A stretch of DNA of 64,000 nucleotides from an uncultured Dehalococcoidia bacterium (lineage in GTDB: Bacteria > Chloroflexota > Dehalococcoidia > DSTF01 > RBG-16-68-14). The position numbers were made by a program, and so were the translations under genes. Under the pieces are notes generated by a model. It was not told the origin of the DNA. It saw nothing but the letters and a program-made list of their open reading frames with translations, and did not search any database. The DNA lies in NCBI GenBank assembly GCA_964406605.1, contig CAYOSF010000004.1:36322-100321 (forward strand), in the 5' to 3' direction. Below are positions 3,164 through 29,719 of the stretch, one piece after another (position 1 is the stretch's first letter; every line of letters starts with the position of its first letter).

Positions 3164-3185
3164 GCACGGTGAGCGAGAGGCTGGC

Positions 3186-3420: not shown

Positions 3421-3509
3421 TCTTGCCCCACGGCGCGCGCTGACCCTAGCATGGGCAGGAGCATGTTCGTCCGTTGGAGAAAGGAGTCCTGTGTCGAGGA
3501 CAGGTCCGT

Positions 3510-5971: not shown

Positions 5972-6128
5972 TAGCAGCGGACAATCGCCAGACGCGGCGG
6001 CCCAAGCATTCGCTCCGTGACGCGCCGTCAGAGGCAATTCCCGGGAACGAAGAAAAAGATCCCTCAGACCGTGTAAGAATTCCGCGCCGCACCTGTCATA
6101 CCGGTGACACCAAGAAAGGAGGCGTAGG

Positions 6129-6731
6129 ATGAACGCCATCATAAAGGTCACCGGTCTCATGGTCATGGTAGCGGCGGGGTACATCGGAATAGCTGGAGGC
6201 GTCGTCCAGGCGGCACCGGGGCCCGAAGAGGCGCAGATGGAGCGGATCACCGACCCGTGCATGGTGCTCGCGGACTGCATCCAGATCGATCCCTGTCTCG
6301 TCGTGGATTGTGACGATGAGCCGGCCGTTGAGCCTGCTGACGACCCGGCCGTTGAGCCTGCTGACGACCCGGTCGTTGAGCCTGGTGACGACCCGGCCGT
6401 TGAGCCCGGCGACGACCCGGCCGTTGAGCCTGGTGACGACCCGGCCGACGATCCTGGGGACGACCCGGCCGACGACCCTGGGGACGATCCCGGAGACGAC
6501 CCGGGCGACAATCCGGGCGACGATCCTGGAGACCACCCTGGTGACCAGCCGGGCGGTGACCCTGGGAACCAGCCCGGGACCAGCTCTCTGCCCGACGCCG
6601 GCACCGGCGACGGCGCCCCGGCCCAGAACAGCCAGGGAGTCATCGTTCTCGCCGCACTGGGCATCGCGGGCATCGCGATCCTGTTCGCCATGTTCGTGGC
6701 GTTCCGGAGCAAGGAATCGTCCGCACGCTGA
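6129..6731 (+). CDS. Secreted/anchored acidic tandem-repeat protein (Asp/Pro-rich)
   Basis: N-terminal hydrophobic signal/TM. Five 8-aa repeats (DDPAVEPA/G), then about twelve 4-aa repeats (DDPG/DDPA). C-terminal LPDAGTG...hydrophobic helix...RSKESSAR tail. Confidence 0.5.
   Translation: MNAIIKVTGLMVMVAAGYIGIAGGVVQAAPGPEEAQMERITDPCMVLADCIQIDPCLVVDCDDEPAVEPADDPAVEPADDPVVEPGDDPAVEPGDDPAVEPGDDPADDPGDDPADDPGDDPGDDPGDNPGDDPGDHPGDQPGGDPGNQPGTSSLPDAGTGDGAPAQNSQGVIVLAALGIAGIAILFAMFVAFRSKESSAR
6304..6590 (+). repeat. In-frame tandem repeats (24-bp x5, then 12-bp x~12) inside CDS 6129..6731
   Basis: Repeating gacgacccggccgttgagcctgstgac units followed by gacgayccbggv units, read directly from the sequence. 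Confidence 0.7.
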
Positions 6732-6816
6732 CATCGAGGGAAGAGGTAGGACGGCAGCGGGCCGCCCGTACGGGCGGCCTGTTGCGTCGTGGGGCGGATC
6801 AGGATGGCGCGCCCGG

Positions 6817-7230
6817 TCAGCCATGCCAGACCCTCAGGAACTCCCCCGGCGTGACGAACTCCGTGCCCGCATAGCCCCGCGAGAGCAGTACTTCTCTGTC
6901 GGCCGTGACCAGATATTGGGCGTCTCCGCCGACCGCCGCTTCGGCCAGTCGACGGTCTCCCTCGTCCTTGAGCCGGAGGCCGGTCACCTTCCCCGGCACG
7001 ACGAGCACACTTCGCTCGCGCAGCTCCTGCAGCAGGCCGGTCACCTGGCCGCGGGACGTGACCCGCCCGAGCCAGGCGGCTCCCAGCACCAGTTCCGCCT
7101 CGCGGAGCGTCGCCTCCGACGCCACGATCTCCAATCGACCGTCGCGCCACGCCCGCACGATCTTCGCAGCGCTGCCTCTCGGCTTCGCCAGCGCGGCGAC
7201 GAAGACGTTGGTATCGACGACGATTCTCAC
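6817..7230 (-). CDS. PIN-domain protein (putative TA-system toxin family)
   Basis: VRIVVDTNVFVAAL...LVTADREVL motif layout typical of PIN nucleases. Start probably the GTG at 7230; the ORF is open up to 7290. Confidence 0.55.
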   Translation of the reverse strand: MRIVVDTNVFVAALAKPRGSAAKIVRAWRDGRLEIVASEATLREAELVLGAAWLGRVTSRGQVTGLLQELRERSVLVVPGKVTGLRLKDEGDRRLAEAAVGGDAQYLVTADREVLLSRGYAGTEFVTPGEFLRVWHG

Positions 7231-9180: not shown

Positions 9181-9800
9181 GCGCGTGAGGGCGAGGGGGG
9201 AGGAGGGTCATGGGTCGGGGGTCGAGGGTCGGGGGTCGGGGGAGGGTCCTTCGGCAAGCCCTTCGGCAGGCTCGGGGCGAGGGGCCAGATTCCTCGCTTC
9301 GCTCGGAATGACATTGCTCTTCATGTGAGTGGGGGAGCGCTGATGTCGAGGCGGGCGAGGGGAGAGGGTTCACCGCGGCGGCGAGCTTGGAGGGCGTGGC
9401 TCCCTCACCCCGACCTGACGGTCGACCCTCTCCCGCAGGCGGGCGAGGGGAGAGGAGGGTCATGGGTCGGGGGTCGAGGGCCGCGGGAGGGCGGGAGGTT
9501 CCTTCGACAGGCTCGGGGCGAGGGGCCAGGTTCCTCGCTTCGCTCGGAATGACACCGCTCTTCATGTGAGTGGGGGCGCGCTGCTGATGTCAAGGCGGGC
9601 GAGGGGAGAAGGCGGGGGTCATGGGTCGGGGTCGAGGGTCACGAGAGGGCGGGAGGTTCCTTCGACAGGCTCGGGGCGAGGGGCCAGATTCCTCGCTTCG
9701 CTCGGAATGACATTGCTCTTCATGTGAGTGGGGGAGCGCTGATGTCGAGGCGGGCGAGGGGAGAGGGTTCACCGCGGCGGCGAGCTTGGAGGGCTTCGAG
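9181..9800. repeat. Cluster of REP-like composite repeats (family 1): three copies of a ~110-130-bp unit, one CCCTCACCCCGACCTGACGGTCGACCCTCTCCCGCAGGCGGGCGAGGGG hairpin unit, and (GGGTCGR)n G-tracts
   Basis: Near-identical units at ~9267-9393, 9507-9612 and 9667-9795 (GCTCGGGGCGAGGGGCCAGATTCCTCGCTTCGCTCGGAATGACATTGCTCTTCATGTGAGTGGGGG...). G-tracts at 9208-9245, 9463-9480, 9617-9640. The same modules recur at 20285-20545, 26893-27125 and 32800-32905. Confidence 0.85.
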
Positions 9801-14600: not shown

Positions 14601-15084
14601 GGCGTTCGACATGGGCAACCTCGGCCGCGCCCTGCGTCTCGCGCGCGTCGACTTCGGTGTCGAAGTGGACATGGGACCGCTGGCACCGCTCATGCACGAT
14701 CCCACGACCGGCGAGGTCGGCTCTCTCTTCGCCGCCGGGGAGATCACCTATCCTTCGGGACACGGCGGAGACTCTGAGAAGGGAACGCTCATCTTCATCA
14801 AGAGCGGCATCGTCAACGAGGAGCTCACTGCCGACCTCCTCAGCTACTGGAAGAACGAGCATCCCGCCTTCCCCTATGACTCCACAACCGACCAACAGTA
14901 CGACCAGCCGCAGTTCGAATCCTACCGCCAGCTCGGCTACATAGCGGCCCGAGCCATGTGGAACTCAGTCGATGTTGCTCCGGGTGGCGATACGAGGGGA
15001 CGGCTCACAAGGATCGCCGACAAGTACAGCAAGACCACAGCGGAGCAGCATGCCCGCACAAGCCGATCAATATCCTATCCCTGA
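11656..15084 (+). CDS. Patatin-like phospholipase, 1142 aa, with ~320-aa N-terminal region and a ~570-aa multi-TM insertion between the catalytic Ser and Asp motifs
   Basis: GGGMRSG oxyanion block (LALSGGGMRSGVFSLG), nucleophile block STVSGGGYFG, and DGG block YLSDGGHFDNLGLYELL about 575 residues later. Residues ~445-720 form multiple hydrophobic helices. Start uncertain (next in-frame ATG at 12358). Confidence 0.75.
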   Translation: MAHRERAVNSERESPCQCKRPGGRPTVLALRLDDPGGLFSSGETNISDDVRSILKAHYAVVHGAPHGPEALIPAPCRIKEDLASPEDIDAAGPAKLREFARRRFVAVFQSETDALHRAVAIQQRASESLQGSSKQGEGGGTAPDRPDARPYYGGEARLQCVIGLAHEKAPRSTVERIRSKAQKLLQRTPSESTSGAQEPSNVGEAVALIGPEGPASGGSIVCTGTVYQELPQKDMRLLYEWEEAREPAPRRLNRDYVLAQIKRPFSAVKRFMKGAGAPMECIYDDAQVLLNAPFERTFSAEVRGWIKPRRGARPDGPGALLYPERPHPKNELVGLALSGGGMRSGVFSLGAVQALARYGVLEDVDYLSTVSGGGYFGAALSALWADPLPYDDLPQLNATPEHFPFAYPRPPSDGGPRAVHGNESPALKYVRGNAKLFGSGIGLFNAGTWSDAGRFLVSMMLLWTVFLLPTITLPVLGAIGVRNGFQHLRPHVDWQDPWWIALALIPAAPAILAVLLSAVAWRVGDRGRWRERLCGASIGSAIVAALLFVPEVFGAVTLQPSMEDVWTRHWLVTLAAVSPLVVFGVYALISFVVENIRGERTRFVPDSVRSVLLPTSAVLTFVLLLCAGVWGFDQLWNGTIARYVTGGAGVGGATVGGFSLSKLWDARLKDNKRVQRAILQIGLAVGGYFVLGLVLSAWSWFLWSSGAGSPGWVFHAAWAAAGGLVLLGLCHPVSRGLLNRFSLSRTYAAMIQKSWVVGAVPKELASGRPGADTEEAGDLSRQTKAAHWTRVWPRPDITMHTLREKTAAPGKVPPGPYHLVCTALNLPGSTSAKLLDRRSDSFVIAPIHSGSALTRWRSTEGHDELDGMPLAQAAAISGAAISPNMGGRTTRTLSIILTLLNVRLGRWMRNPRPSTNTLIKKVFVDAPLVLYWKEMLGLASHEDGQIYLSDGGHFDNLGLYELLRRRCKYIVAVSADVGALEEAFDMGNLGRALRLARVDFGVEVDMGPLAPLMHDPTTGEVGSLFAAGEITYPSGHGGDSEKGTLIFIKSGIVNEELTADLLSYWKNEHPAFPYDSTTDQQYDQPQFESYRQLGYIAARAMWNSVDVAPGGDTRGRLTRIADKYSKTTAEQHARTSRSISYP

Positions 15085-15230
15085 ACGTCCAGCCATTCCG
15101 CCTCGTTGCCGCCGGAGACCGAGGCACGTCTGCGGCTGGAGGCCCCGTCCCGCGTCCGGGACCCGCCCCATATAATGGTGCGCGTGGGCATGACTGAGCA
15201 CCGGTAGGGCATCGAAAGGATTCCATCGCC

Positions 15231-16820
15231 ATGAGTAGCGACGACACGATCCGGGTCGGCGTGTTCTCGCCGAACGACAACCGAGCGTGGGTGCGAGCCG
15301 ACAACCTGGACCTCATGCTCCGGCACGAGGGGCTGCTCATCGATGCGCTCCGGGGGCAGGGCGTGGAGGTGATCCGGGGCGGCGACGGCTACCCGCGCGA
15401 AGACCAGATCGCGTGGAATCGAGAGCTGGTGATCGAGCAGGCGAGGAAGATCGCCCAGGCGCGGCCGGACGCGCTGATCCTGAACCAGGGCTCGTGGACG
15501 TTCCCGCGGGACTCCGTGGATGCGGTGGACATCTATGAGGGCGCGATCCGGACGCTGGTGGACAACGCCGGCGAGGCCGGGGCGCGCATTCTGCTGTTCG
15601 GGTACAAGGACCCGGCGGTCCCCGGCATGGTGGCCGTGATGGCGGTGGCCGGGGCGCTCAAGATCATGGGCCGGTCGTACCAGATCTGCTACGGCCTGGT
15701 CGACCAGGACCCGTCGACGCTACAGGACCTGATGAGCAAGCTCCGCTTCTTCAAGCGACGCGCCGACGCGGCACGGGACGTTGCGGGCGTCATCGCCAGG
15801 CTGCCGGAGCAGAAGTACCTCCAGTTCGGGGGCGAGTCGCTGCGCATGCCCACGGCCACGGCCGACCCCAACCTGTGGCAGAAGACCTTCAAGGTGAGCT
15901 ACGACCACCTCGACCAGTCCGAGATCGTGAGCCGCGCCCTGGGCTTCGTGCGCTGGAGTGGCGTGGCGGGCGAGAGCGACTACGAGATCGTGGACGACAG
16001 GCTGAAGAAAGCCATCGCCTATAAGGAGAAAGAGGGCAGGTTCGACTTCAGCAGGCCAAAACTGACATCGATCGGCAAGTTCGTGATGCAGACGGCCATG
16101 TTCTACGCGGCGCGAGACATCGTGGAGGAGACGGGCGCCACCTTCTGCGGCGTCAAGTGCCAGGACGAACTGAGCGCGCGGATGTGCACCGCCTGCATCG
16201 TTACGTCGTATCTGGGCAACGACGTGGCGCCCGACGGGACGCCGCAGGAGCGCTTCTACCCGACCTCCTGCGAGAACGACATGGACACCGCGCTCACTCA
16301 GCACCTGCTCCACCTGCTGACGGGCCGCCCGGCCGCCTTCGGCGACTTCCGGGACGTGGAGGACGGCGCGCTGGCCATCGTCAACTGCGGCCAGCACCCG
16401 ACGCACTTCTTCGGCACGCCCGACGAGGACCCGGCGGAGAAGGAGCGCCGGGCCGAGTTCATGGGACAGGAGGTGTTCTATGACGCCGGCGGGAGCGTCG
16501 TGCGAGGCCGGACGCCGGGAGGTCTCGAAGTCACGGTGGCGAGGCTGGGGCGCGAGAACATGCGCTACTACCTGGCCGCCACGGTCCTGCAGACCGTCGA
16601 CGTGCCGGTCGAGCAGCACGAGCGCTACAACCCGTCTTGGCCGGTCCTGCGCGGCAAGATCCCGATGGCGGAGCGCGAGCTGATCGCCATGTGGCCGTCG
16701 AACCACCTCGCGTTCTCGTTTGGGGACTTGACGCCGGACCTGGCGGAGCTGTGCGAGGTGTTGGGCATCGGCTACTGTATCGTCGACGGGGACGGGAACC
16801 GGTACGAGCGGCCCGCGTAG
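15231..16820 (+). CDS. Sugar isomerase, L-fucose/L-arabinose isomerase family
   Basis: 529 aa with family-like N-terminal half. AAGGA RBS precedes the ATG. Family assignment by eye only. Confidence 0.45.
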   Translation: MSSDDTIRVGVFSPNDNRAWVRADNLDLMLRHEGLLIDALRGQGVEVIRGGDGYPREDQIAWNRELVIEQARKIAQARPDALILNQGSWTFPRDSVDAVDIYEGAIRTLVDNAGEAGARILLFGYKDPAVPGMVAVMAVAGALKIMGRSYQICYGLVDQDPSTLQDLMSKLRFFKRRADAARDVAGVIARLPEQKYLQFGGESLRMPTATADPNLWQKTFKVSYDHLDQSEIVSRALGFVRWSGVAGESDYEIVDDRLKKAIAYKEKEGRFDFSRPKLTSIGKFVMQTAMFYAARDIVEETGATFCGVKCQDELSARMCTACIVTSYLGNDVAPDGTPQERFYPTSCENDMDTALTQHLLHLLTGRPAAFGDFRDVEDGALAIVNCGQHPTHFFGTPDEDPAEKERRAEFMGQEVFYDAGGSVVRGRTPGGLEVTVARLGRENMRYYLAATVLQTVDVPVEQHERYNPSWPVLRGKIPMAERELIAMWPSNHLAFSFGDLTPDLAELCEVLGIGYCIVDGDGNRYERPA

Positions 16821-16879
16821 CGGCGGGCGGCGCCGGACAGCGCCAACAGAGACCTGGCCAGAGCGGAGGGAAGCACACG

Positions 16880-17494
16880 ATGGACGTATTCGAAGCGATC
16901 GGCACGCTGCGCGCGATGCGCCGGCTGAAGCCCGATCCGGTCTCCGATGAGGACGTCTGGAAGGTTCTCGACGCCGCCATCAAGGCGCCCAGCGGCGGGA
17001 ACCGGCAGCCGTGGAACTTCATCGTCGTGCGAGACCCGGAGATCAGGCGCAGGCTGGGCGAGTACTACCTCGACGCGTGGGGCAAGGCGTACGCCGGCGG
17101 GCCAGGCCGGGCCAGGCTGGACGACCCACGCTCGGCGCGCGTGTACCGTTCGGCCGAGCACCTGGCGCACCACCTGGCCGAGGCGCCGGTCCTCATCATC
17201 GTCACCCTACGCAAGGACGGGCCGACCCTTCCGCCCCTGGCCGGCAGCTCCATCTACCCGGCGATCCAGAACCTGATGCTGGCCGCGCGGGCGCTCGGCC
17301 TGGGCACCACGCTCACAACGCTGCACAAGCTCCACGAGCGGGAGGTGAAGGAACTCCTCGGCATCCCGGAGCAGGTCGAAACCATGGCGCTCATCCCCCT
17401 CGGCCGGCCGAAGGGGCGGTTCGGTCCTCCGACGCGGTTGCCCGTGGAGAAGGTCGTCTACTGGGAGCGGTGGGGCGAACGACGGGAGCGGTGA
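16880..17494 (+). CDS. Nitroreductase-family protein
   Basis: MDVFEAIGTLRAMRRL...APSGGNRQPWNFIVV, the classic nitroreductase N-terminus. GGAGGG RBS at 16865-16870. Confidence 0.75.
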   Translation: MDVFEAIGTLRAMRRLKPDPVSDEDVWKVLDAAIKAPSGGNRQPWNFIVVRDPEIRRRLGEYYLDAWGKAYAGGPGRARLDDPRSARVYRSAEHLAHHLAEAPVLIIVTLRKDGPTLPPLAGSSIYPAIQNLMLAARALGLGTTLTTLHKLHEREVKELLGIPEQVETMALIPLGRPKGRFGPPTRLPVEKVVYWERWGERRER

Positions 17495-20284: not shown

Positions 20285-20545
20285 TCGTTGAGAGGATAGC
20301 GGCGAGAGGGTCGGGGGTCGAGGGCCGGGGGTCGCGAGAGCGCGGGCGAGGCAGTTGCCTGTTGATTGCATTTGGAAATGGGACGGATTCCAGATACGAG
20401 AAGCGCGCATGTGGTTTGATTGACCGTCGTCGGGATGGGACCGAGGGCCGGAGATGGAGGGTCGGGGGCCAAGGGTCGCCGGAGCGGACCCTCACCCCGA
20501 CCTGACGGTCGACCCTCTCCCGCACGCGGGCGAGGGCAGGGAACG
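20285..20545. repeat. Family-1 repeat modules: (GGGTCGR)n tracts plus CTCACCCCGACCTGACGGTCGACCCTCTCCCGCACGCGGGCGAGGG unit
   Basis: Direct sequence identity to modules in the 9181-9800 cluster. Confidence 0.8.
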
Positions 20546-20557
20546 GTAGGGAATTCG

Positions 20558-20725
20558 TTTTGCAGAATCATGTTCTTCCCCTGCACGCGTATTCGCGTTT
20601 GGTATCTGGAATCGGTTTCCGGGCGCACGGCCGTGCGCCCCTACGCGACCGGACCCGCACAAGACGGGTTGTACGAGCCTAGGATACGGCGCGGTCGGGA
20701 GAGCGCGAAGGGGCGGGTGGCACCG
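20558..20725. repeat. Family-3 element, copy 2
   Basis: See copy 1 (10338-10530). Contains palindrome GGCGCACGGCCGTGCGCC. Confidence 0.75.
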
Positions 20726-20852
20726 GGGGGAGGGCGGATACTGCGGCTGGCGAACGCAGAACGGACGCTACTGCGGCGGGACGGGCCTCGCCAGCAGAGC
20801 GAGTATGCGGGACAAGGGCGGCCTATAGCGAGGGGGCGGCGATCGGCTTAGA

Positions 20853-22208
20853 ATGGTAGTGGTCATGAGGCAAGTGGAGAGCGTGGCTGTGGGCGCGAAG
20901 GCGTGCAACTTGGCGGAGCTAGAGCCCTATGTCCGAGCGCTGGAGACTCTGGCGACGCAAGCCCGCCCTGTGGGTGTAAGCACGGGCAGCGCTGATTGGA
21001 TGTCGAAGGTGCTTGATGGGCAGCCCAGCGGGGAGCTGAAGAGAGTTGTTCCGCTGGAGAAAAGAAGGGAAATGGGCGCGTTCTTCACCGGGAAGGCGCT
21101 GGCAGGCGAAACGGTAGCGCCATGGCGGCAGAAGCTCACGCGGCAGGCGAGGATAGTTGACCCGGCGTGCGGTGCGGGAGATCTTCTGCTTGCATGTGCG
21201 CGGTCATTACCAACGCATGAAACACTCAGAGAGACCTTGTGGCAATGGGGCCGCCAGGTATTCGGGTTCGACTTGCATCCGGAGTTCGTGCGGGTGACCA
21301 AAGCAAGGCTAGCCCTGCTGGCCGCCCAGCGTGTACGCCGAGACAGTAGAGTGGTGATCCCTCCGCTTGATCAGATGTTCCCGAATGTGCAGGTGGGGGA
21401 TGGCTTGGGCGATGTGTACGATGCGGTCCGCCCGACGCACATCGTCTTGAACCCTCCGTTCCAGAGAGCGGAGGCCCCGGACTGGTACACGTTGGGGAAT
21501 GGTCTGGTATCGCGCGCGGCGGTGTTCGTTCAGAGATGGCTGTTGGAGGCAGAGTCAAAAACGGAGTTCGCCGCAATCCTGCCTGACGTACTGAGGACGG
21601 GAGCCAACTACGCGAGCTGGAGAGCGTGGGTGGAAAGGCAGAGCGCGAGCCGCGAGGTGAAGGTGCATGGAGCCTTTGACTCCGAGGCGGATGTGGATGT
21701 GTTCATACTTCGGGTGGTATGCGGCTCGAGGAAGGAAGCCGATGAGACTGGCTGGTGGCGGGGAGGGCCGGCGGAGCAGGGATGCGTAGGCGAGCGGTTC
21801 AATGTGCACGTGGGATCCGTGGTGCCGCACAGAGACGCGAAAATGGGGCCTTGGCGTGCGTTTGTCACCACGCGGGTATTGCCACGCTGGGGTGTGGTGA
21901 GGGCTGATAAGAGCAAGAAACGCCGATATCGCGGCCGAACGTTCTCGCCGCCGTTCGTGGCGATACGCCGCACATCAGCACCCGGCGACAGGAAGCGGGC
22001 TGTGGGTACGATTGTCACAGGTGCGATTCCTGTGGCGGTAGAGAACCATCTTATCGTGGCCGAGCCGCGTGACGGCTCAGTTCAGAGCTGTCGTGGGTTG
22101 CTGGATGTGCTGCATTCAGACGAGAGCGATCGGTGGTTCGACGAGCGAATACGGTGTAGACATCTGACGGTGTCGGCGGTGGCCGAATTGCCGTGGCGGA
22201 GCTGGTAG
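20853..22208 (+). CDS. N6-adenine DNA methyltransferase (gamma-class amino-MTase)
   Basis: Motif I DPACGAGDLL (AdoMet binding), motif IV IVLNPPF ((N/D)PP(Y/F)). No TRD/REase fused. Alternative ATG 12 nt downstream. Confidence 0.8.
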   Translation: MVVVMRQVESVAVGAKACNLAELEPYVRALETLATQARPVGVSTGSADWMSKVLDGQPSGELKRVVPLEKRREMGAFFTGKALAGETVAPWRQKLTRQARIVDPACGAGDLLLACARSLPTHETLRETLWQWGRQVFGFDLHPEFVRVTKARLALLAAQRVRRDSRVVIPPLDQMFPNVQVGDGLGDVYDAVRPTHIVLNPPFQRAEAPDWYTLGNGLVSRAAVFVQRWLLEAESKTEFAAILPDVLRTGANYASWRAWVERQSASREVKVHGAFDSEADVDVFILRVVCGSRKEADETGWWRGGPAEQGCVGERFNVHVGSVVPHRDAKMGPWRAFVTTRVLPRWGVVRADKSKKRRYRGRTFSPPFVAIRRTSAPGDRKRAVGTIVTGAIPVAVENHLIVAEPRDGSVQSCRGLLDVLHSDESDRWFDERIRCRHLTVSAVAELPWRSW

Positions 22209-22209
22209 G

Positions 22210-24258
22210 ATGACGACCGACTACCTCAAGTTCTCTCCAGACATTCTGCGCCGGCTGGGCGAAGAGCTTGTGCCTCAGCCGGAACAGGGCATCGTAGAGC
22301 TGGTGCGAAACTCATACGATGCGGACGCCGTAAGCTGCACTGTGGAGATCAACGACGCGGGGGGGCCAGGAGGAGCGGTTTGCGTCACTGATGACGGCGT
22401 GGGCATGGATGTCGAGGCGATCAGCTCTGGGTGGCTGGTAGTGGGACGGTCGCCAAAAGTGGGGCGGCAGGTCACCGGGCGGGGGCGCTATCCTGTAGGG
22501 GACAAGGGGCTTGGGAGACTGGCCGCACTGCGCATGGGGCGGTTCGCCGACCTGGCGACTCGACCCAAGCGGGATCCGGGGAAGCAGTTCCGCCTGGTAA
22601 TCGACTGGGTGCGCGTAGACAGCGCGACTGTAGTGGAAGGCGTTCCATTCGAGATCAAGGAACAAGAGACCAGGGAGCCCCCTGGAACGACGATCGAGAT
22701 CAGGGACCTCCACGTTGCGCTGGGGCGGAGAGAGGTGAACCGGCTAGCGCGGTCACTGCTTCTACTGGCGGATCCCTTCGATGACTCGACTGGATTCCAC
22801 CCGCAACTTGTGGCACCAGCCTTCAGTGATCTGGAGAAGCGTGTGCGGGAGTCCTATTTCGCGGAAGCGGATCACAAGCTTGTGGCGAGCTTGGACGAGG
22901 CCGGTAGAGGTCAAGCGGAAGTAGTGGACTGGAAGAATGAAGTGCTGTGGAAGGCTGCACACGAGGATTTGAGCGACCGGCCGTACGAAGCGCCTGCTGC
23001 AACCTTCGAGTTGTCGGTCTTCCTTCTGGACTCCAAGACGTTCTCTTCGCGCTCGGTATCACTGCGGGAAGTCAGGCAATGGCTCCAGGTGGTGGGCGGT
23101 GTCCACCTGTACCATAGGGGACTTCGCGCACATCCGTATGGCGATCCCGGCCACGACTGGCTGGAGATGAATCTCCGAAGGGCAAGAAGCCCCGAAGAGC
23201 GCCCTTCTACGAACACGTCGATTGGCCGGGTCGTCGTCCCGGATCCTGGAGAGCACCTGATACAGAAGACGGATCGAACGGGCTTCATAGAGAACGAAGC
23301 TTTCGGGGAGCTCCGTGGCTTTTGCACAGACGCTCTGGATTGGATGGCGAAAGCGCGACTGCGTGCAAGAGAACGGGGCCGGCAGAAGGAGAGAGTGGGG
23401 GCGTCGCGGTCGGTGGTACGTGCGCGCGAGTCAGTCAAGCACGCCATGGACGAGGTGCCCGTACCGGTGCGGAGGTCGGTGGAAAAGGCGGTGGAGCGCC
23501 TGGATCGTGCGCGTGACAGAGAGTCAAGAGCGCTCAGGGAAGAGCTGCAGCTGTACAGAACGCTGGCTACTGTGGGGACGACGGCCGCAGTCTTCGCTCA
23601 CGAATCGGCGAAGCCAGTTTCTCAGATCGAGAGGACGGCCAGGATCATCGAGAATCGCGGGCGTAGGCTGTTGAAGGAGCGGTATGCAGAAGAGCTGGAG
23701 AAGCCCGTTGGCCTGGTCATTCGGTCATCTCAAGCTCTGCGGAGTTTTGCCGCGCTGCCGCTGAGTCTTCTCAAGCGGGAAAAGCGAAGGGTGGGTCGCG
23801 TGGACGTGCATGCGGTCATCGGGGATGTTCATGATCTCTTCGAACCGTTCCTGACGGACGCTCGCATACGGGTGGATCTTGAACTGACGCAGCAGATCCC
23901 TTCGATAAGGGGGAGTGCTGCAGCGCTTGAGGCCATAGTGGCGAATCTGCTTACTAACGCGGTAAACGCTTTCGCAGCTCAGTCTGGCAAGGTAGCGTCG
24001 CGCCGAGTGGTGATTCGTACAGAACTCTCGGGAGACAGACTGCTCCTGCGAGTCATGGACAATGGACCGGGAATCACGGACATAAGCGTAGACGACATCT
24101 GGCTGCCTGGCCAGAGCACCGTGCCTGGTGGCACAGGCCTGGGGCTTACGATTGTGCGCGACTCGGCGGTGGACCTTGGCGGGAGTGCGCACGCACTGGC
24201 GCATGGGGAGCTGGAGGGTGCCGAATTGGTAGTTGAGCTTCCGACTATCGGAGCGTAG
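22210..24258 (+). CDS. Cytoplasmic GHKL-ATPase (MORC/MutL-like Bergerat fold) fused to a histidine kinase core (HisKA-like + HATPase_c)
   Basis: N-terminal ELVRNSYDADA N-box, DDGVGMD and GDKGLG. C-terminal H-box-like VFAHESAKPVSQI, N-box LLTNAVNAF, DNGPGI, GGTGLGLTIV. No TM segments. Starts 2 bp after the MTase stop. Confidence 0.75.
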   Translation: MTTDYLKFSPDILRRLGEELVPQPEQGIVELVRNSYDADAVSCTVEINDAGGPGGAVCVTDDGVGMDVEAISSGWLVVGRSPKVGRQVTGRGRYPVGDKGLGRLAALRMGRFADLATRPKRDPGKQFRLVIDWVRVDSATVVEGVPFEIKEQETREPPGTTIEIRDLHVALGRREVNRLARSLLLLADPFDDSTGFHPQLVAPAFSDLEKRVRESYFAEADHKLVASLDEAGRGQAEVVDWKNEVLWKAAHEDLSDRPYEAPAATFELSVFLLDSKTFSSRSVSLREVRQWLQVVGGVHLYHRGLRAHPYGDPGHDWLEMNLRRARSPEERPSTNTSIGRVVVPDPGEHLIQKTDRTGFIENEAFGELRGFCTDALDWMAKARLRARERGRQKERVGASRSVVRARESVKHAMDEVPVPVRRSVEKAVERLDRARDRESRALREELQLYRTLATVGTTAAVFAHESAKPVSQIERTARIIENRGRRLLKERYAEELEKPVGLVIRSSQALRSFAALPLSLLKREKRRVGRVDVHAVIGDVHDLFEPFLTDARIRVDLELTQQIPSIRGSAAALEAIVANLLTNAVNAFAAQSGKVASRRVVIRTELSGDRLLLRVMDNGPGITDISVDDIWLPGQSTVPGGTGLGLTIVRDSAVDLGGSAHALAHGELEGAELVVELPTIGA

Positions 24259-24259
24259 A

Positions 24260-24976
24260 TTGACCTCCGTGCGTTCCGACTCGCAGATCGAAAAGGTGGC
24301 GGTGGTTGATGACGACCAAACCGAGGCACAGCTAATGAGCGAGATTGTGCAAGAGGCTGGCTTCTTGCCTGTGCCAGTTCTTGCGACCGAGCGAACGGAT
24401 CGGTTTGACAACCCCTCGGTGCTAGCAGCTGTGATTCAGGACAGAGCGGAGGCGGCCGTGTGTGATCATCGCCTGCGACCGCTGGGTTATGCATCTTTCG
24501 ACGGCGCACAACTGGTGGCCGAGCTTCTTGTGCGAAAGATACCGGCAGTGCTGGTCACTACGTACCTGGATATCGACGCAGATGTGTCGATTAGAAGGTG
24601 GCGCGACAAGATCCCAGTTCTACTAAGTAGGGATGAAGCCGATCCAGAGCATATCCGAGAGGGACTGGAAGCGTGTCTGTCGGAGATAGCCGGCGCAGTA
24701 CTAGCTGGCCGGCGGCCTCGCAGAGCCCTGATACGCGTGGTGGATGTCACACAGGAATCCAGCGAGACCGTTGTGGACGCTATCGTGCCGCAGTGGAACC
24801 CGAACAAGGGCGTTCGCTTTCCGGTCACGCTCCTGCCTCGTGAGCTGCACAGCGAGGTGGCCCCCGGAATCAGGCTACTGGCTGATGTGAATATTGGCGC
24901 ACGAAAGGCCGAAGAGCTGTTCTTCGGGAACTTCGATCTTGCGCCAGAGCCTGCTCGAGAGAATGACGTCCTGTGA
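24260..24976 (+). CDS. Response-regulator receiver (REC) domain protein with ~100-aa uncharacterised C-terminal extension
   Basis: KVAVVDDDQTEAQ…AAVCDHRL (phospho-Asp position)…VLVTTY…K. TTG start at 24260 directly after the kinase stop. The in-frame ATG at 24233 would overlap the kinase by 26 bp. Confidence 0.65.
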   Translation: MTSVRSDSQIEKVAVVDDDQTEAQLMSEIVQEAGFLPVPVLATERTDRFDNPSVLAAVIQDRAEAAVCDHRLRPLGYASFDGAQLVAELLVRKIPAVLVTTYLDIDADVSIRRWRDKIPVLLSRDEADPEHIREGLEACLSEIAGAVLAGRRPRRALIRVVDVTQESSETVVDAIVPQWNPNKGVRFPVTLLPRELHSEVAPGIRLLADVNIGARKAEELFFGNFDLAPEPARENDVL

Positions 24977-25943
24977 GCTAGCAATCCTTGATGTGGGACA
25001 CGGCAACTGTGTCGTGCTCAGTGACGACCTTGGCACAGTGGTGTTCGACGCTGCGAGCGGAGAGACCTTGCTCGAGTTCCTCGAACAGGAGGAGATTACT
25101 GACATAGATGCGGTGCTGATCTCGCATGCGGACGCCGACCACATCGCGGGCGTGCTGACACTCCTGCTGGAGCCCAGCGTTCTCGTTCGCAAGATCTACC
25201 TCAACCCAGACGCTGCGAGGACAACACAGATATGGTGGGACTTCCGGTGCGCGCTACGTGTCGCCAGAAGGAGCTTCGGCACACAGGTGAAGACGCAGCT
25301 GACAATGGAGTCGTCGGCGGAGTTCGCCAGGGGTGAGGTGCAGATTGATGTGCTAGCACCGCAACCTGAGATTGCGGCAAGCGGCGCGGGCGGCCGGGAC
25401 TTGAGGGGACGTCTCCTCACGTCCCACTCGGTGTCCGCCGTCGCCCGGATCATGACAGACGATGTCGGCCAGGCAATTCTGTGTGGTGACCTGGACGACG
25501 TGGGCCTTGACAACTTTCTAGAGGCGGGTTCGTCGCCGAGCGCGAAGGTGCTGCTCTTCCCACATCACGGCGGGACGCCAGGTGGAAGCAATGCCTTCGA
25601 CTTCGCGAAACGACTGGTTCAGGCTGTTCAACCGAATGCGGTGGTGTTCTCAAACGGGCGGGCGAGACACGGAACTCCGCGTCCCGAGATCATTGAGGGC
25701 GTACGCGCGGCCGCGCCGCAGGCGCACATCGCGTGCACCCAGCTGTCCGAGAGATGCGCAGCAAATACTCCTTCTGAGCCTCCTGGGCATCTGGCCGCGC
25801 TCCCCGCACAAGGTCGCGCGGTCAACGCGTGCTGCGCAGGGAGTCTGCACGTGAGCCTGCGCGAAGGCAGCATAGCTGCACCGAAGCCGAGCGAGCATCT
25901 GGGTTTCATTAGGCGAGAGGCTCCGACGCGGCTTTGCGAGTGA
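24963..25943 (+). CDS. MBL-fold hydrolase of the ComEC-C-terminal type (candidate nuclease effector)
   Basis: LAILDVGHGNCVVL…DAVLISHADADHIAG…LLFPHHG. Overlaps the REC gene end by 14 bp. Confidence 0.7.
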   Translation: MTSCELAILDVGHGNCVVLSDDLGTVVFDAASGETLLEFLEQEEITDIDAVLISHADADHIAGVLTLLLEPSVLVRKIYLNPDAARTTQIWWDFRCALRVARRSFGTQVKTQLTMESSAEFARGEVQIDVLAPQPEIAASGAGGRDLRGRLLTSHSVSAVARIMTDDVGQAILCGDLDDVGLDNFLEAGSSPSAKVLLFPHHGGTPGGSNAFDFAKRLVQAVQPNAVVFSNGRARHGTPRPEIIEGVRAAAPQAHIACTQLSERCAANTPSEPPGHLAALPAQGRAVNACCAGSLHVSLREGSIAAPKPSEHLGFIRREAPTRLCE

Positions 25944-26106
25944 CGCTGGGCAAGGGATTGTAGTCTGTCGCAGAGAGGCCGGTTGGCGGGCGGCGAGCTG
26001 GTGCCGATGGAGGCGGAACTGGCGGGCCGTGAGGGGCGCCAGTACGAGCCGGCGTCGGTGCTGCTGGAGCGCGTCAAGGCAAAGCGGGTGGCGCGGTAGA
26101 CCAGAC

Positions 26107-26761
26107 GTGAGGCGCGATTCCGAGCGGCGGCATCGCCAGTCCATTCGGCTGAAAGGGTACGACGACGCGCAGGCCGGCGCGTATTTCGTGACGGTCTGCA
26201 CGTACGGTCGGGAATGCCTGTTCGGGGAGGTGGCCGGCGGTGAGGTACGGTTGAACGAATGTGGCGAACTGGTTGAGGCGTGCTGGAATGACATTGCCGG
26301 CCATTTCGCCTGCGTCCAATTGGACGCGTTCGTGATCATGCCCAATCACGTTCACGCTATCCTTCACATCACGGAATGCCAGAGCGCCGCAACCGTAGGG
26401 GCACGGCATGCCGTGCCCCTACCGGGCAACGTGCCCCACCGAAACGTTGAACGGTTCGGCAAGCCGGTGGTGGGTTCGATTCCGACCATCGTGCGGTCCG
26501 TGAAATCCGCCACCACCAAACGTATCAACGAACGGCGCGACACGCCCGGGCGCGCGCGTGTGGCAACGCAACTACTACGAACACATCATCCGCGACGAGG
26601 AAACCACCATGGGCGCGGAAACCGCGCCCCTACCGGGGGTGGAACGACCGGCGCTGGACCGTATCCGACGGTACATCGTCGACAATCCGGCACGGTGGGC
26701 GTCCGATCCGGAGAACCCGCAGGCGGCGGTGCCGGAACGCGAGGAGGCATGGCGCACGTGA
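26107..26761 (+). pseudogene. REP-associated tyrosine transposase (RAYT / IS200-like TnpA_REP) with +1 frameshift
   Basis: Frame 1 reads HRQSIRLKGYDDAQAGAYFVTVCTYGRECLFGE…FVIMPNHVHAILH…SVKSATTKRINERRDTPG. Frame 2 continues VWQRNYYEHIIRDEE…IRRYIVDNPARW. The break lies in a GCGCGCG run near 26545-26555. Confidence 0.75.
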
Positions 26762-26892
26762 CCGCGTGGGTCACCCATGGGCGCAGAGACCGCCACTACG
26801 GGACCGGCGGCGGGGATGGTGCCCGATCCCCGGGCGGGTTAGAAACCCGCCCCTACGGCGGGTGCGGCCCGGAGGGCGAGGGGAGCGCCCGG

Positions 26893-27125
26893 TAGGCCTA
26901 TGGCGAGGGGCCAGATTCCTCGCTTGCGCTCGGAATGACGGAGAGGGGGAAGGCGGGAGAGCGAGGGGCCGGGGGTCGAGTGTCGGGGGTCGGGAAAGAA
27001 CGGGCGGTGTGAGATGGTGGGGGCGTGGACGCACACGGATAGAGACCGAGGGTGGAAAGCCTCGGCTACGGTGGCGAGAGGGGTCGAGAACCGGGAGTCG
27101 AGGGTCGAGGGTCGAGGGTGGCAGT
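26893..27125. repeat. Family-1 repeat modules immediately downstream of the RAYT remnant
   Basis: GGCGAGGGGCCAGATTCCTCGCTTGCGCTCGGAATGAC plus several GGGTCGAGGGTCG tracts, e.g. gggtcgagggtcgagggtcgagggtgg at ~27096. Confidence 0.8.
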
Positions 27126-27137
27126 GTGCGGGACCAG

Positions 27138-28664
27138 TTAGCGCCGGCGCAGGCGCAGCGCCGCGTACGCAGCGGCCGCCGCGAGGCCCGTAGCCGCAAG
27201 GGCGGCGATGGGCCAGATCGGCAGGCCGTCGCCGGGGCCGCCGCCGATGCCGGTAGACGGCGGCCGAATGACCCCCGCGGTCGCGGTCGGGACGGGCGTG
27301 GTCGACGCGGGCTCGAACTCGTAGGCGCCGATGTCGCAGACCGCGCTACCGTCGCCGTCGCCGTCGAGGGGGCGGGCGACGCCGCGCTGGTCGGTGTCGG
27401 GCGGCGGGCAGTCATCGCTCGCGGCGTCGATGGCGGGGCTTCCGGCGAGGAGGGCGGAAGTTCGGGTGGACCCGCCGTTGTCGGCGAGGTCGCCGAGCAA
27501 GGGATCGGCGTCGGTGATGTCGCTGGGGGCGGTCGGGCCGCACGCGAGCGGATAGAAGATGTTGTGGCCGGCGGACGCGATCGTGGCGCCGATGCAGTTG
27601 TTGCCGATGCGGGTGCCGTTGAAGGCGACGATCGTGTTCTTCAGCGTCGTGGTGCCGCCGCCGGAGATGCCCCCTCCCCGACCGATGGCCGTGTTCGATG
27701 CGACGGTAGCGTGGTTGAGCATCGCCGATCCGGTATTGAAGAGGCCGGCGCCATCGCTGTTGGCGAGATTGCCTCCAATCGTGACGTTGGTGAGCGACAT
27801 GGCAGCGCCGTTGAAGATGCCGCCGCCGTCATCGCCGATGTTGCCGGCGAAGGTACTGTCACGGATGGTGACCGTGCCCGCATCGTTGTAGAGCCCGCCG
27901 CCGTTCGCGCTGAAGGCCGTGTTGCCGTTGCCGCTGATGGTACTGTCGGTGAGCATGAGGGAGCCGTTGTTTGCGATCCCGCCGCCGTTCGCGCTGTAAG
28001 CCGTGTTGCCGTTGCGGCTGACGGTACTGTCGGTGAGCGTGAGGGAGCCGTTGTTTGCGATCCCGCCGCCGTCGAAGGCGGAGTTCCCGCTGACGACGAC
28101 ATGGACAAGCGCCAGCACGCCGTTGTTCAAGACGCCGCCGCCGTCGTTGGGAGCGTTCCCTTTCCGGAGGGTCACGCCGGCGATCTGCACCGAGATACCG
28201 TCGGATGCAGGATCGACGTGGAAGGCGCGGTCGACGCCGCCCATGTCAATGACGGTGTCGGCCGCCCCTGCGCCCGTAATAGTGAGGTCACCCGTCGTGA
28301 CGTCCAGGTCGCCGTCGGCGGCGTCGTCGGGCGTGCCGTCCGGCGGGATACGCAGCATGTAGGTGCCCGGCCCGAGCAAGATGGCATCCGGACCGGGGGC
28401 CGTGTTGGCGTCGATGATCGCCTCCCGCAGGGAGCAGTCACCCGGCGCGCAGCCGTCGGGGGCGGGATCGTCGAACCTCGTAACCTCGAAGCCGGTCGCT
28501 GCGGCCGGCTGCCGGCCGCCCGGCATGACCAGCACAAGAGCGGCAACGGCAAGGCCGAACGCGACCAATGCGAGAAGTCGGGGAACGGCAGGGGTCAAAC
28601 GGGACGTGGGCGTGCCTCCTTGTACGTCTCGACCTGGGCGGGAGCTTACTCCGCGGTCGAGCAA
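27138..28664 (-). CDS. Secreted right-handed beta-helix protein with CSLREA domain and C-terminal hydrophobic anchor plus Arg tail
   Basis: CSLREAIIDAN motif, many NxGxL / GGG beta-helix repeats, N-terminal signal/TM, C-terminal …WPIAALAATGLAAAAAYAALRLRRR. Confidence 0.6.
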   Translation of the reverse strand: MLDRGVSSRPGRDVQGGTPTSRLTPAVPRLLALVAFGLAVAALVLVMPGGRQPAAATGFEVTRFDDPAPDGCAPGDCSLREAIIDANTAPGPDAILLGPGTYMLRIPPDGTPDDAADGDLDVTTGDLTITGAGAADTVIDMGGVDRAFHVDPASDGISVQIAGVTLRKGNAPNDGGGVLNNGVLALVHVVVSGNSAFDGGGIANNGSLTLTDSTVSRNGNTAYSANGGGIANNGSLMLTDSTISGNGNTAFSANGGGLYNDAGTVTIRDSTFAGNIGDDGGGIFNGAAMSLTNVTIGGNLANSDGAGLFNTGSAMLNHATVASNTAIGRGGGISGGGTTTLKNTIVAFNGTRIGNNCIGATIASAGHNIFYPLACGPTAPSDITDADPLLGDLADNGGSTRTSALLAGSPAIDAASDDCPPPDTDQRGVARPLDGDGDGSAVCDIGAYEFEPASTTPVPTATAGVIRPPSTGIGGGPGDGLPIWPIAALAATGLAAAAAYAALRLRRR

Positions 28665-28912: not shown

Positions 28913-29719
28913 ATGGGTGCCATGATGGATGCTCCTAGCCCGGGCGTGGGCGGGTTCTACCTGGACGGCGAGCCGCAGCTATCGCCGGAGCGTGCCGTGG
29001 CCGAGCGGTGCGAGCGTCAGGGGATCACGTTGGACCAGATGGGGGTGAAGCCGTCGGTGGTGGCGACGTTCTTCCCGCAACTCACCACGTATCTCGCCCA
29101 GCGAAGCGGCGCGACTCGGTCCGAGCACTGGTGGCCGGAGATGGACAGCCGCGCGCTCTTCACGGCGGACGGCGGGGTGTCCATCGCGACGCTGGACGTC
29201 GGCGCGCCGGGCGCGTGCTTGATCTTCGAGGAGCTGATCGCGTGCGGGGCGAGGAATATCGTGGTGGTGGGGGCGGCCGGGAGCCTGCAGCACCACCTGC
29301 CTATCGGGTCGGTCGTGGTGCCGACAAGGACCGTGCGAGAGGAAGGCACGTCCTACCACTACCTGCCGCCGGAAGCGCCGGCCGAGGCGTCCGCGGGCGT
29401 GCTCGGCGCGCTGCGGGCCGCCTGGCGCGGGTCGGGCGAGATGCGGGAGGGCCTGCACTGGACCACGGACGCGCCCTATCGAGAACACAAGGAGAAGGTC
29501 GCCGCCTTCCGCGAGGCCGGCGTTCTCTCGGTCGACATGGAGGTGTCGGCGCTGTACGCGGTTGCGCAGCACCGGGGCGCGTCGTGCGCGGCCATTCTCG
29601 CGATATCGGACGAGCTGTACGAACCGTGGCGGATCGGCTTCTACGGGGAGGAGTTCCAGCGCGCGATCGTGCGGTGCGGGCTGGCCGCGTTGGAGGCGGC
29701 GACGCAGGTGGCGACCTGA
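28913..29719 (+). CDS. Nucleoside phosphorylase family protein (PNP_UDP_1 fold)
   Basis: NIVVVGAAGSL … SVDMEVSALYAVAQ blocks characteristic of the PNP/MTAN superfamily. Confidence 0.55.
   Translation: MGAMMDAPSPGVGGFYLDGEPQLSPERAVAERCERQGITLDQMGVKPSVVATFFPQLTTYLAQRSGATRSEHWWPEMDSRALFTADGGVSIATLDVGAPGACLIFEELIACGARNIVVVGAAGSLQHHLPIGSVVVPTRTVREEGTSYHYLPPEAPAEASAGVLGALRAAWRGSGEMREGLHWTTDAPYREHKEKVAAFREAGVLSVDMEVSALYAVAQHRGASCAAILAISDELYEPWRIGFYGEEFQRAIVRCGLAALEAATQVAT

Follow-up and report, generated by a model that had tools for sequence, protein, structure and literature searches.

The closest described relative of the locus presented here is Ambrosia, an anti-phage system of Pseudomonas aeruginosa composed of AbrR-AbrA-AbrB-AbrC-AbrD, which shields its host from two phage groups (van den Berg et al, bioRxiv 10.1101/2025.09.30.679545). 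AbrR is a HipB-like XRE regulator, AbrA an N6-adenine (N6A) methylase, AbrB a 747-aa 'sensor histidine kinase/HSP90-like ATPase' with HATPase_c_3 and HATPase_c domains, AbrC a receiver with a wHTH (winged helix-turn-helix) and AbrD an HNH endonuclease of 213 aa; defence is abolished by AbrB N40A, which removes the GHKL Asn, by AbrC D60A, by AbrD H60A and by AbrA T72A, the latter located in the predicted methyltransferase (MTase) domain (bioRxiv 10.1101/2025.09.30.679545). Phage grown on a strain carrying AbrA only is still sensitive to Ambrosia, reporter fusions show hardly any activity until infection, which induces them strongly, and AbrA and AbrB are labelled by DefenseFinder as Type II MTase and restriction endonuclease (REase) in a table of the same paper (bioRxiv 10.1101/2025.09.30.679545). 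We describe a four-gene cassette, g1 to g4, at positions 20853-25943 of a 64,000-nucleotide stretch of contig CAYOSF010000004.1 from an uncultured Dehalococcoidia bacterium, referred to as the window. On sequence comparison g1, g2 and g3 are homologues of AbrA, AbrB and AbrC, and the place of the HNH effector is taken by a predicted metallo-beta-lactamase (MBL) hydrolase of the ComEC type. We consider it fairly likely that the cassette is a horizontally transferred anti-phage/anti-plasmid system forming an MBL branch of an Ambrosia superfamily, in which a phosphorelay would gate a DNA nuclease.

Two further descriptions are relevant. A paraMORC-histidine kinase/receiver pair lying beside restriction-modification (R-M) genes was described bioinformatically in 2021 (Bellieny-Rabelo et al, PMC8011034). 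This pair, derived from paraMORCs, consists of a HATPase_c_3-containing HEF_HK kinase and a Response_reg_2 receiver, and the paper stresses C5 methylases, HNH_2 and Vsr as neighbours; the terms 'lactamase', 'defense' and 'phage' occur 0 times each in its text, and neither an MBL partner nor a receiver-OB (REC-OB) architecture is described there (PMC8011034). With respect to the effector, the MBL domain of ComEC is a metal-dependent nuclease in which replacement of a motif II His by Asp is described as a ComEC feature (PMC8579336), and the OB fold of ComEC enhances this nuclease (PMC12455585).

Results

Relation of the cassette to Ambrosia and other known systems

The initial annotation of this DNA, made by a model from the sequence, had recognised no named system in the gene combination. 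This claim does not survive comparison with the Abr protein sequences, taken from Table S1 of the Ambrosia preprint (bioRxiv 10.1101/2025.09.30.679545). In BLASTP, g1 shares 34% identity with AbrA over 359 aa (E = 1e-57), g2 aligns over 383 aa with the N-terminal 399 residues of AbrB at 25% identity (E = 5e-28), and g3 aligns with AbrC just around the phospho-acceptor Asp. When the g3 and AbrC receiver families are compared by hhalign, the match reaches 97.8% probability (E = 1e-12) over 126 columns and covers the REC domain only. The effectors g4 (MBL) and AbrD (HNH) are unrelated, and phmmer retrieved no AbrD homologue in the window or in the clade I loci presented below.

The two systems are alike in their gene order (MTase, kinase, receiver, nuclease), in their shared logic of R-M plus two-component signalling, in the combination of HATPase_c_3 and HATPase_c in g2 and AbrB, and in the phospho-acceptor, D69 of g3 being equivalent to D60 of AbrC. 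The suggestion that kinase, receiver, nuclease and methylation act together against invaders fits this relationship, by analogy with Ambrosia. They differ, however, in several respects. The effector is a 326-aa ComEC-type MBL protein instead of an HNH enzyme, and the predicted output domain of g3 is OB-fold-like, whereas AbrC has a helical C-terminus, called a wHTH by its authors, to which that of g3 is unrelated. The XRE regulator is absent from the window cassette, and g2, only ~25% identical to AbrB, belongs to a separate clade. Finally, the MBL branch has no MTase at about one third of its loci and spans far more taxa than the Gammaproteobacteria reported for Ambrosia.

Other systems resemble the cassette in part. 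Detocs (DtcA/DtcB/DtcC), reportedly presented by Rousset et al in 2023, is said to rely on a cytoplasmic kinase that phosphorylates a receiver protein and thereby unleashes an effector, with TPR in DtcA, DtcB as a buffer receiver and DtcC as a REC domain fused to the effector (PNP, ATP nucleosidase). The resemblance to Detocs noted at the outset holds for the logic and fails for homology: the cassette has a non-homologous paraMORC GHKL sensor, a single receiver gene and a separate MBL effector, no Detocs model matched, and Detocs was rejected as the family on these grounds. MADS (mad1-8) is an eight-gene methylation-associated defence system in which MAD6-8 are mandatory (bioRxiv 10.1101/2023.03.30.534895). 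A weak match of g1 to the mad2 methylase model was obtained (4.8e-6); this family was also rejected, as the cassette has no MAD6-8 counterpart and g2-g4 match no mad model. GHKL-Shedu/paraMORC3 (VcSduA; PMC12137116) and the HgiDII/BbrUII enzymes similarly place a nuclease under the control of an N-terminal paraMORC-type GHKL domain, in settings whose anti-phage role is validated or accepted. In these proteins, however, the GHKL domain is fused directly to the nuclease (DUF4263/PD-(D/E)xK), whereas that of g2 is fused to a kinase core and its route to a nuclease would lead through a receiver protein.

The pair described in 2021 shares with g2 and g3 a soluble kinase of HATPase_c_3, dimerisation and histidine phosphotransfer (DHp) and HATPase_c domains, an adjacent divergent receiver and linkage to an R-M methylase (PMC8011034). 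Its families PF19191 (HEF_HK) and PF19192 (Response_reg_2) gave no match in g2, g3 or the relatives scanned (E <= 1-10), in a Pfam copy for which the presence of these models is unconfirmed. The PADLOC models applied to g1-g4 returned nothing beyond MTase, REase and MBL models, and at E <= 0.1 neither g2 nor g3 matched any PADLOC model except REase_II, found by g2 only. The B protein of a PADLOC candidate, PDC-M48, is weakly matched by g4; a literature search turned up no description of this candidate. No description of the cassette architecture was found in the accessible parts of the text of the DefensePredictor and BREX-diversity papers.

Layout of the cassette

The listing of open reading frames (ORFs) and the junctions read from the sequence concur on four intact same-strand ORFs whose ends abut or overlap (Table 1), in agreement with the single operon-like cassette proposed initially. 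The stop codon of g1 (TAG, 22206-22208) is followed one base later by the ATG of g2 at 22210, and g2 stops at TAG 24256-24258. Candidate starts of g3 are TTG 24260 (238 aa) and GTG 24269 (235 aa), and an alternative TTG at 24233 (247 aa) would produce an overlap with g2; the public gene call for the identical contig places the start of g3 at GTG 24269 (235 aa) and that of g4 at 24963. Since the ATG of g4 at 24963 precedes the stop of g3 (TGA, 24974-24976), the two genes overlap by 14 nt, which suggests that g3 and g4 are made together. The longest g4 ORF begins at 24894, and its stop is TGA 25941-25943. The G+C content of the cassette is 61.2%, lower than the 66.7% and 67.3% of the two 10-kb stretches that flank it. 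Reading of the upstream intergenic region revealed no XRE/AbrR-like gene. A sigma-70 promoter scan of 20300-26500 returned 0 promoters and no consensus site, and terminator-like sites in the same interval are no more frequent than in shuffled sequences.

Table 1. Positions of the cassette genes, of their predicted motifs and domains, and of associated features (window coordinates, unless a locus is named)
Feature	Position (nt)	Strand	Length or residues	Description
g1	20853..22208	+	451 aa	Predicted AbrA-type gamma-class N6-adenine DNA methyltransferase
g1 motif X	21081-21092	+		FFTG
g1 motif I	21159-21188	+	aa 103-112	DPACGAGDLL
g1 motif IV	21450-21461	+	aa 200-203	NPPF
g2	22210..24258	+	682 aa	Predicted AbrB-type soluble sensor kinase, paraMORC-GHKL/histidine-kinase fusion
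g2 GHKL Asn	22297-22329	+	N34	ELVRNSYDADA
g2 GHKL motif	22390-22410	+		DDGVGMD
g2 GHKL motif	22498-22521	+		GDKGLGRL
g2 conserved middle region	23134-23160	+		PYGDPGHDW
g2 conserved middle region	23263-23286	+		QKTDRTGF
g2 HisKA-like DHp	23593-23616	+	H464	FAHESAKP
g2 CA domain, N-box	23944-23970	+
g2 CA domain, G1	24058-24075	+
g2 CA domain, G2	24127-24156	+
g3	24260..24976	+		Predicted REC domain and C-terminal OB-fold-like beta-barrel
g3 acidic pair	24302-24316	+	D18/D19	VVDDD
g3 predicted phospho-acceptor	24458-24475	+	D69	VCDHRL
g3 OB-like domain	~24705-24950	+	aa ~150-230	From predicted structure
g4	24963..25943	+	326 aa	ComEC-type MBL-fold hydrolase, predicted nuclease effector
g4 motif	24990-25007	+		DVGHGN
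g4 motif II	25122-25142	+		SHADADH (HxDxDH)
g4 motif	25560-25574	+		PHHGG
g4 motif	25734-25757	+		CTQLSERC, part of conserved C-terminal Cys/His cluster
Upstream intergenic region	20526..20852			Presumed promoter region between divergent GH116 gene and g1, read from the sequence
G-rich repeat copy	9212-9238
G-rich repeat copy	9464-9490
G-rich repeat copy	20308-20351	+
G-rich repeat copy	26966-27009	+
Degenerate G-rich repeat copy	20457-20478
Degenerate G-rich repeat copy	27080-27121
RAYT fragment in ORF	26029-26895	+		Truncated REP-associated tyrosine transposase; context, outside the system
Branch III locus L062
Branch III locus L064
Branch III locus L067	L067:9055-10425			Protein after the kinase
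Branch III locus L083	L083:9126-10304			Protein after the kinase

Predicted functions of the four proteins

The domain assignments initially given to the four genes are upheld by matches to Pfam, NCBIfam, PADLOC and PDB profiles and, for g3, by a predicted structure, with one revision concerning the C-terminal part of g3. The motif order X-I-IV of g1 is that of the gamma class, and its motif I (D-P-x-C-G-x-G-x-L-L) and motif IV (N-P-P) are conserved at 95% or more in 39 homologues, which corroborates its identification as a gamma-class amino-MTase. Its C-terminal region is also conserved, including PPFVAIRRTS and VAVENH. Pfam N6_Mtase matches g1 at 1.5e-3, under the gathering cut-off, and the best match to the Type II methyltransferase models of PADLOC (MTase_II) is 8e-9.

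Pfam recognises HATPase_c_3 at aa 25-142 (2e-16) and HATPase_c at aa 570-678 (2e-20) of g2, and its NCBIfam matches are AtoS, ZraS and the BbrUII/HgiDII N-terminal model. With a 17-homologue profile searched against the PDB, residues 6-123 match MutL and MORC3, and residues 437-679 match the DHp and the catalytic and ATP-binding (CA) domains of solved histidine kinases (ZraS, 1e-22). Within these 17 homologues the invariant positions are N34, D61/G63/G65 and G97/K99/G100/G102 in the GHKL domain, and H464-E465 (FAHE H-box), N579/N583, D617/G621 and G641-T-G-x-G-L in the kinase core. On this evidence the phospho-histidine site and the two ATP-binding modules look functional, consistent with the initial description of a soluble dual-ATPase protein with a histidine-kinase core. 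Matches of g2 to the PADLOC REase_II models (3.7e-10) and to NF050001 (BbrUII/HgiDII; 4.5e-18) concern the GHKL domain only, with aa 12-182 aligned to positions 9-186 of a 659-position profile, and no nuclease domain is recognisable in g2 by Pfam, NCBIfam or PDB-profile searches.

In Pfam and NCBIfam, g3 has no significant match (Response_reg E = 0.18), and its fold was consequently taken from structure prediction. The AlphaFold model, computed with a 34-homologue alignment, has a pLDDT of 94. A receiver domain had been proposed for g3 together with an unknown C-terminal extension of ~100 aa; the receiver stands, while the extension is predicted to be an OB-fold-like barrel. Foldseek comparison of this C-terminal domain with the PDB returned OB folds at non-significant scores, and we assign it an OB-fold-like nature with moderate confidence. 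The extension had also been considered as a possible effector, and a nucleic-acid-binding or adaptor module is judged likelier. The DD pair is kept by the homologues of g3, and D69, at the end of beta3, is invariant. Together, g2 and g3 contain the sequence elements of a two-component pair, namely the H-box His and the N, G1 and G2 boxes of the kinase and the acidic pocket and Asp of the receiver. The REC-OB family represented by g3 comprises 388 clusters (50% identity) at E <= 1e-30; among the best 150 of the 388, the proteins are stand-alone and measure 147-279 aa, nearly all of them 215-265 aa.

The identification of g4 as an MBL protein of the ComEC C-terminal type is sustained by several lines of evidence, from which nuclease activity is predicted. 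Pfam Lactamase_B matches at 5e-11, the best NCBIfam match is TIGR00361 ComEC_Rec2 (5.6e-9), and the closest solved relatives are ComEC/Rec2 chains (~2e-6), followed by CbpE, a phosphocholine esterase. DVGHG, S-H-x-D-x-D-H and P-H-H-G-G are kept across 50 homologues, so that g4 has the same Asp-for-His variant of motif II (HxDxDH) as ComEC, and an OB-like domain is encoded alongside, in g3. Unlike ComEC, g4 is soluble, without competence channel or transmembrane domain, has an extra Cys/His C-terminus, and has its OB-like partner on a separate, receiver-fused protein with no detectable similarity to the ComEC OB domain. The Cys/His cluster (25734-25940; ~C258, C265, C291, H312, C325) lies outside the ComEC matches and may be a zinc-binding or DNA-binding add-on.

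Three branches of relatives in other genomes

Relatives of g2 are abundant: more than 2,500 were found among the candidates scored in a protein collection clustered at 90%, and at least 588 species genomes encode one. The 80 best loci were kept, and their ORFs were classified by phmmer with the window proteins and AbrA-D as queries. These loci, which include Chloroflexota, Acidobacteriota, Actinomycetota, Cyanobacteriota, Bacteroidota, Planctomycetota and Pseudomonadota, fall into three branches. Branch I, the MBL branch or clade I, contains 54 loci with a g2 identity of 40-63%, and is found in Chloroflexota, Acidobacteriota, Actinomycetota including Streptomyces, Cyanobacteriota, Bacteroidota, Planctomycetota, Latescibacterota, Verrucomicrobiota and the Alpha-, Beta- and Gammaproteobacteria. 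Where at least 1.8 kb of downstream sequence is available, g3 and g4 lie directly 3' of g2, in the same order, in 48 of 49 MBL-branch loci; this conservation of order places the g2-g3-g4 arrangement far beyond chance. Co-conservation of the four genes, named initially as a check, holds for g2-g3-g4, with a linked methylase in about two thirds of the loci. All-against-all BLAST of the flanking ORFs of 55 loci disclosed no fifth conserved gene, and as no flanking gene is common to more than three MBL-branch loci, the cassette is self-contained. An XRE gene stands beside the cassette in a single clade I locus (L003). As a separate observation, an MBL-branch-like g2 of Wenjunlia tyrosinilytica (L051:6313-8352) is the sole one to lack g3 and g4 although ample sequence is available downstream, and is an orphan or decayed copy.

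Linkage to the methylase is looser in the MBL branch than that of g3 and g4 to g2. Of 52 MBL-branch loci, 34 carry an AbrA-type methylase, which lies upstream and co-directional in 24, upstream and divergent in five, downstream in three and elsewhere in two. It is replaced by an Eco57I-type N6 methylase abutting g2 in one locus (L032) and by a C5 methylase just downstream in another (L035). In 16 of the 52, mostly cyanobacterial, no methylase was found among the flanking genes, and these methylase-less triads are flanked by housekeeping genes. Methylation is a frequent yet dispensable partner of the triad. The proposal that methylation marks self DNA appears doubtful, given these 16 loci without a linked methylase and the persistent sensitivity of AbrA-methylated phage; it may be that methylation tunes or directs the response rather than simply guarding self DNA.

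Branch II has the HNH effector of Ambrosia and occurs in Betaproteobacteria, Gemmatimonadota, Bacteroidota, TM6 and Paceibacterota, a distribution wider than the Gammaproteobacteria of the preprint. It comprises L055, L058-L061, L065, L070, L072 and L076 on genome contigs and L097 on a viral contig. AbrA is upstream in two of these loci only. The three scanned HNH loci that lack it (L058, L060 and L076) all carry an Eco57I-type methylase immediately 3' of the HNH gene. In L061, L065 and L072 this position is occupied by a co-directional ORF of equal size. In branch III, a g2-like kinase is followed by a protein of 350-460 aa, with a weak N-terminal receiver match in most scanned cases and no Pfam match in its C-terminal part; a C5 methylase is adjacent in three of the five loci scanned (L062, L064 and L067). 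This branch is probably the pair described in 2021 (PMC8011034). In one branch III locus (L083), a HerA-like DUF87 ATPase gene is located upstream (5357-6991). In a further Anaerolineae locus (L066:4922-10473), the methylase is AbrA-like and 666 aa long, the kinase is AbrB-like, the receiver (263 aa) resembles AbrC but differs at its C-terminus, and a gene for 217 aa without Pfam match takes the position of the HNH gene; this locus may represent a further effector variant.

Surroundings and mobility

A G-rich REP-like repeat (GGGTCGGGGGTCGAGGGCCGGGGGTCG) is present in 4 copies in the window, against 0 expected. The copies at 20308 and 26966, for which the shorter limits 20308-20334 and 26966-26992 are also given, bracket a segment of ~6.6 kb that contains the lower-GC cassette, and they may mark insertion boundaries. 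The REP-like repeats first reported at the cassette are thus recovered, and so is a decayed RAYT downstream: the corresponding ORF matches NF047646 in truncated form, over positions 8-68 of the 146 in the profile (E = 2.5e-7; 30.7 bits, where the cut-off is 80), and Pfam Y1_Tnp at 0.009. The neighbours in the window include a GH116 glycosidase gene upstream, a nitroreductase-like gene and a choice-of-anchor Q protein. The latter, a secreted 'choice-of-anchor Q' repeat protein, is encoded at 27138-28664 (-), just downstream of the island, and a nucleoside phosphorylase/AMP-nucleosidase-like gene follows at 28913-29719 (+); no evidence was found that links either gene to the cassette.

Elsewhere, the cassette is found on mobile elements. 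Full cassettes are carried by a conjugative 421-kb plasmid, p1 of Burkholderia sp. IDO3 (NZ_CP028965.1, 358589-363758), and by a 101-kb plasmid of Hymenobacter volaticus (NZ_CP095070.1, 49684-54818). The annotation there is purely generic: g1 is annotated 'N-6 DNA methylase / type I R-M subunit M', g2 'ATP-binding protein / sensor histidine kinase', g3 'response regulator / hypothetical protein' and g4 'MBL fold metallo-hydrolase'. The MBL-branch cassette is present on six IMG/VR viral contigs, accompanied on five by a g1/AbrA-type methylase and reduced on the sixth to a partly disrupted methylase-less triad, and HNH-type cassettes are found on other IMG/VR viral contigs; the INPHARED phage genomes contain essentially no copy, with one partial match. 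The neighbours of the relatives include ThsB-TIR genes, integrases, transposases, toxin-antitoxin pairs, AbiJ, an SMC-like ATPase and a PD-(D/E)xK protein. A Chloroflexi cassette (L086) is flanked by two ThsB-like TIR genes, an rve integrase and an SMC_N/AAA_23 ATPase (2356-3731, 14791-16923), and this is a clear defence-island setting, unlike that of the window. Distant relatives of g2, with ~25% identity over 94% of the query, are present in 41 records of ~50-kb plasmids of Campylobacter jejuni/coli, where they are annotated 'sensor histidine kinase'.

Discussion

The predicted MBL/OB branch, which is widespread, compact, and borne by plasmids and predicted prophages, is new, and so is the picture of one superfamily in three branches whose effectors, receiver outputs and methylases are interchangeable. 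We propose that g1, as its motifs suggest, would methylate DNA at N6-adenine, and that the paraMORC GHKL domain of g2, together with the middle region, would respond to an infection-linked cue, most plausibly the state of DNA. This cue would drive autophosphorylation of H464 in the C-terminal kinase core, and the phosphoryl group would pass from g2 to D69 of g3, the position equivalent to AbrC D60, whose substitution by Ala kills Ambrosia defence. The OB-fold-like domain of phosphorylated g3 would then bind nucleic acid and/or engage g4, which would act as a Mn/Zn-dependent ComEC-type MBL nuclease and degrade DNA. Control at the post-translational rather than the transcriptional level is favoured because g3 has no wHTH, because g3 and g4 overlap, and because the OB fold of ComEC boosts the same kind of MBL nuclease (PMC12455585). 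By analogy, the pairing of an OB-like module with an MBL enzyme would echo ComEC.

Several points weigh against this proposal. We infer the cue, the phosphotransfer, the g3-g4 contact and the substrate of g4. The canonical beta5 Lys is absent from g3, in which mostly Arg or Lys follows Ser, and the Response_reg threshold is missed; the competence of g3 as a phospho-acceptor is therefore not certain. Precomputed Pfam matches of the g4 homologues to the anti-Pycsar Apyc1 family, weak or faint as they are, make a non-DNA substrate possible. The surroundings of the cassette in the window are not a defence island. Furthermore, the authors of Ambrosia favour transcriptional control (bioRxiv 10.1101/2025.09.30.679545), which may also operate here, for instance through binding of the OB domain to RNA or single-stranded DNA (ssDNA) regulatory sites.

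If control were transcriptional as in Ambrosia, phosphorylated g3 would be a nucleic-acid-binding regulator that induces g1 and g4 upon infection, and the induced methylase would mark DNA for the nuclease, or g1 and g4 would form an inducible R-M pair. This account draws on the homology of g1-g3 to AbrA-C, on the induction of the Ambrosia genes by infection, on the observation that AbrA methylation is no shield and yet T72A loses defence, and on the capacity of OB and cold-shock folds to bind RNA or ssDNA and to regulate expression. We take it as a serious though unlikely rival; against it, g3 has neither a wHTH nor another recognised DNA-binding transcription domain, its C-terminus is unrelated to that of AbrC, no XRE/AbrR partner is present, the g3 and g4 genes overlap by 14 nt, and one third of the loci have no methylase to induce. 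MBL nucleases are not known to prefer methylated DNA, which also counts against it. A conventional Type II-like R-M system, in which g1 would protect self DNA, g2 would be a GHKL-REase of the HgiDII/BbrUII kind and g3 and g4 would be accessory, might be read from the REase_II and NF050001 matches of g2, from the Type II labels that DefenseFinder gave to AbrA and AbrB, and from the recurrence of MTase linkage with non-orthologous replacement. The REase matches are, however, confined to the GHKL domain, the remainder of g2 being a canonical kinase core without recognisable nuclease; the triad stands without a linked MTase at 16 of 52 loci, the linkage of g2 to g3 and g4 is tighter than its linkage to the MTase, and methylated phage is unprotected in Ambrosia. 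We therefore hold this explanation to be very improbable.

It can also be imagined that the cassette is a selfish or addiction module, that it serves non-defence signalling in DNA uptake or turnover, or that the MBL protein cuts a small molecule such as a cyclic nucleotide. The patchy distribution, suggestive of horizontal transfer, and the occurrence on plasmids, on IMG/VR viral contigs and beside toxin-antitoxin genes would accord with such a role, as would the Apyc1 matches of the g4 homologues, the many substrates of the MBL superfamily and the position of CbpE as the next-best solved relative of g4. Three of the four genes are nevertheless homologous to a system with demonstrated anti-phage activity, g4 has the HxDxDH motif II and finds its best profile and PDB matches in ComEC nuclease domains, and the recurrent presence of DNA methylases, drawn from three families, speaks for a function centred on DNA; such roles are thus improbable. 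A more specific version of the phosphorelay-gated nuclease that we favour can be hypothesised, tentatively and with the odds against it, as 'restriction by signal transduction'. Here, the paraMORC-GHKL domain of g2 would read the state of DNA, for example unmethylated or replicating invader DNA, a His-Asp relay would follow, and the REC-OB protein would load the ComEC-like nuclease onto DNA; the kinase, in place of sequence recognition by the nuclease itself, would take the self/non-self decision, with the reference state set by whichever methylase is present (AbrA-type, Eco57I-type or C5, these being interchangeable). If true, this would be a class of mechanism that no defence system has so far been shown to use, and it would differ from the transcriptional model of Ambrosia.

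Under current annotation these genes go by the names 'Type II REase/MTase', 'sensor histidine kinase' and 'MBL fold metallo-hydrolase', so that genome surveys miss the cassette or misfile it. If the MBL branch works in defence, the Ambrosia family would extend from Pseudomonas-type bacteria to many phyla. Natural swaps would then separate the roles of the parts, with HNH or MBL effectors, wHTH or OB-fold-like outputs, presence or absence of the XRE regulator, and methylases of three families or none. It would also provide a tractable bacterial MORC-like ATPase wired to a phosphorelay, with a bearing on DNA sensing by MORC and paraMORC proteins.

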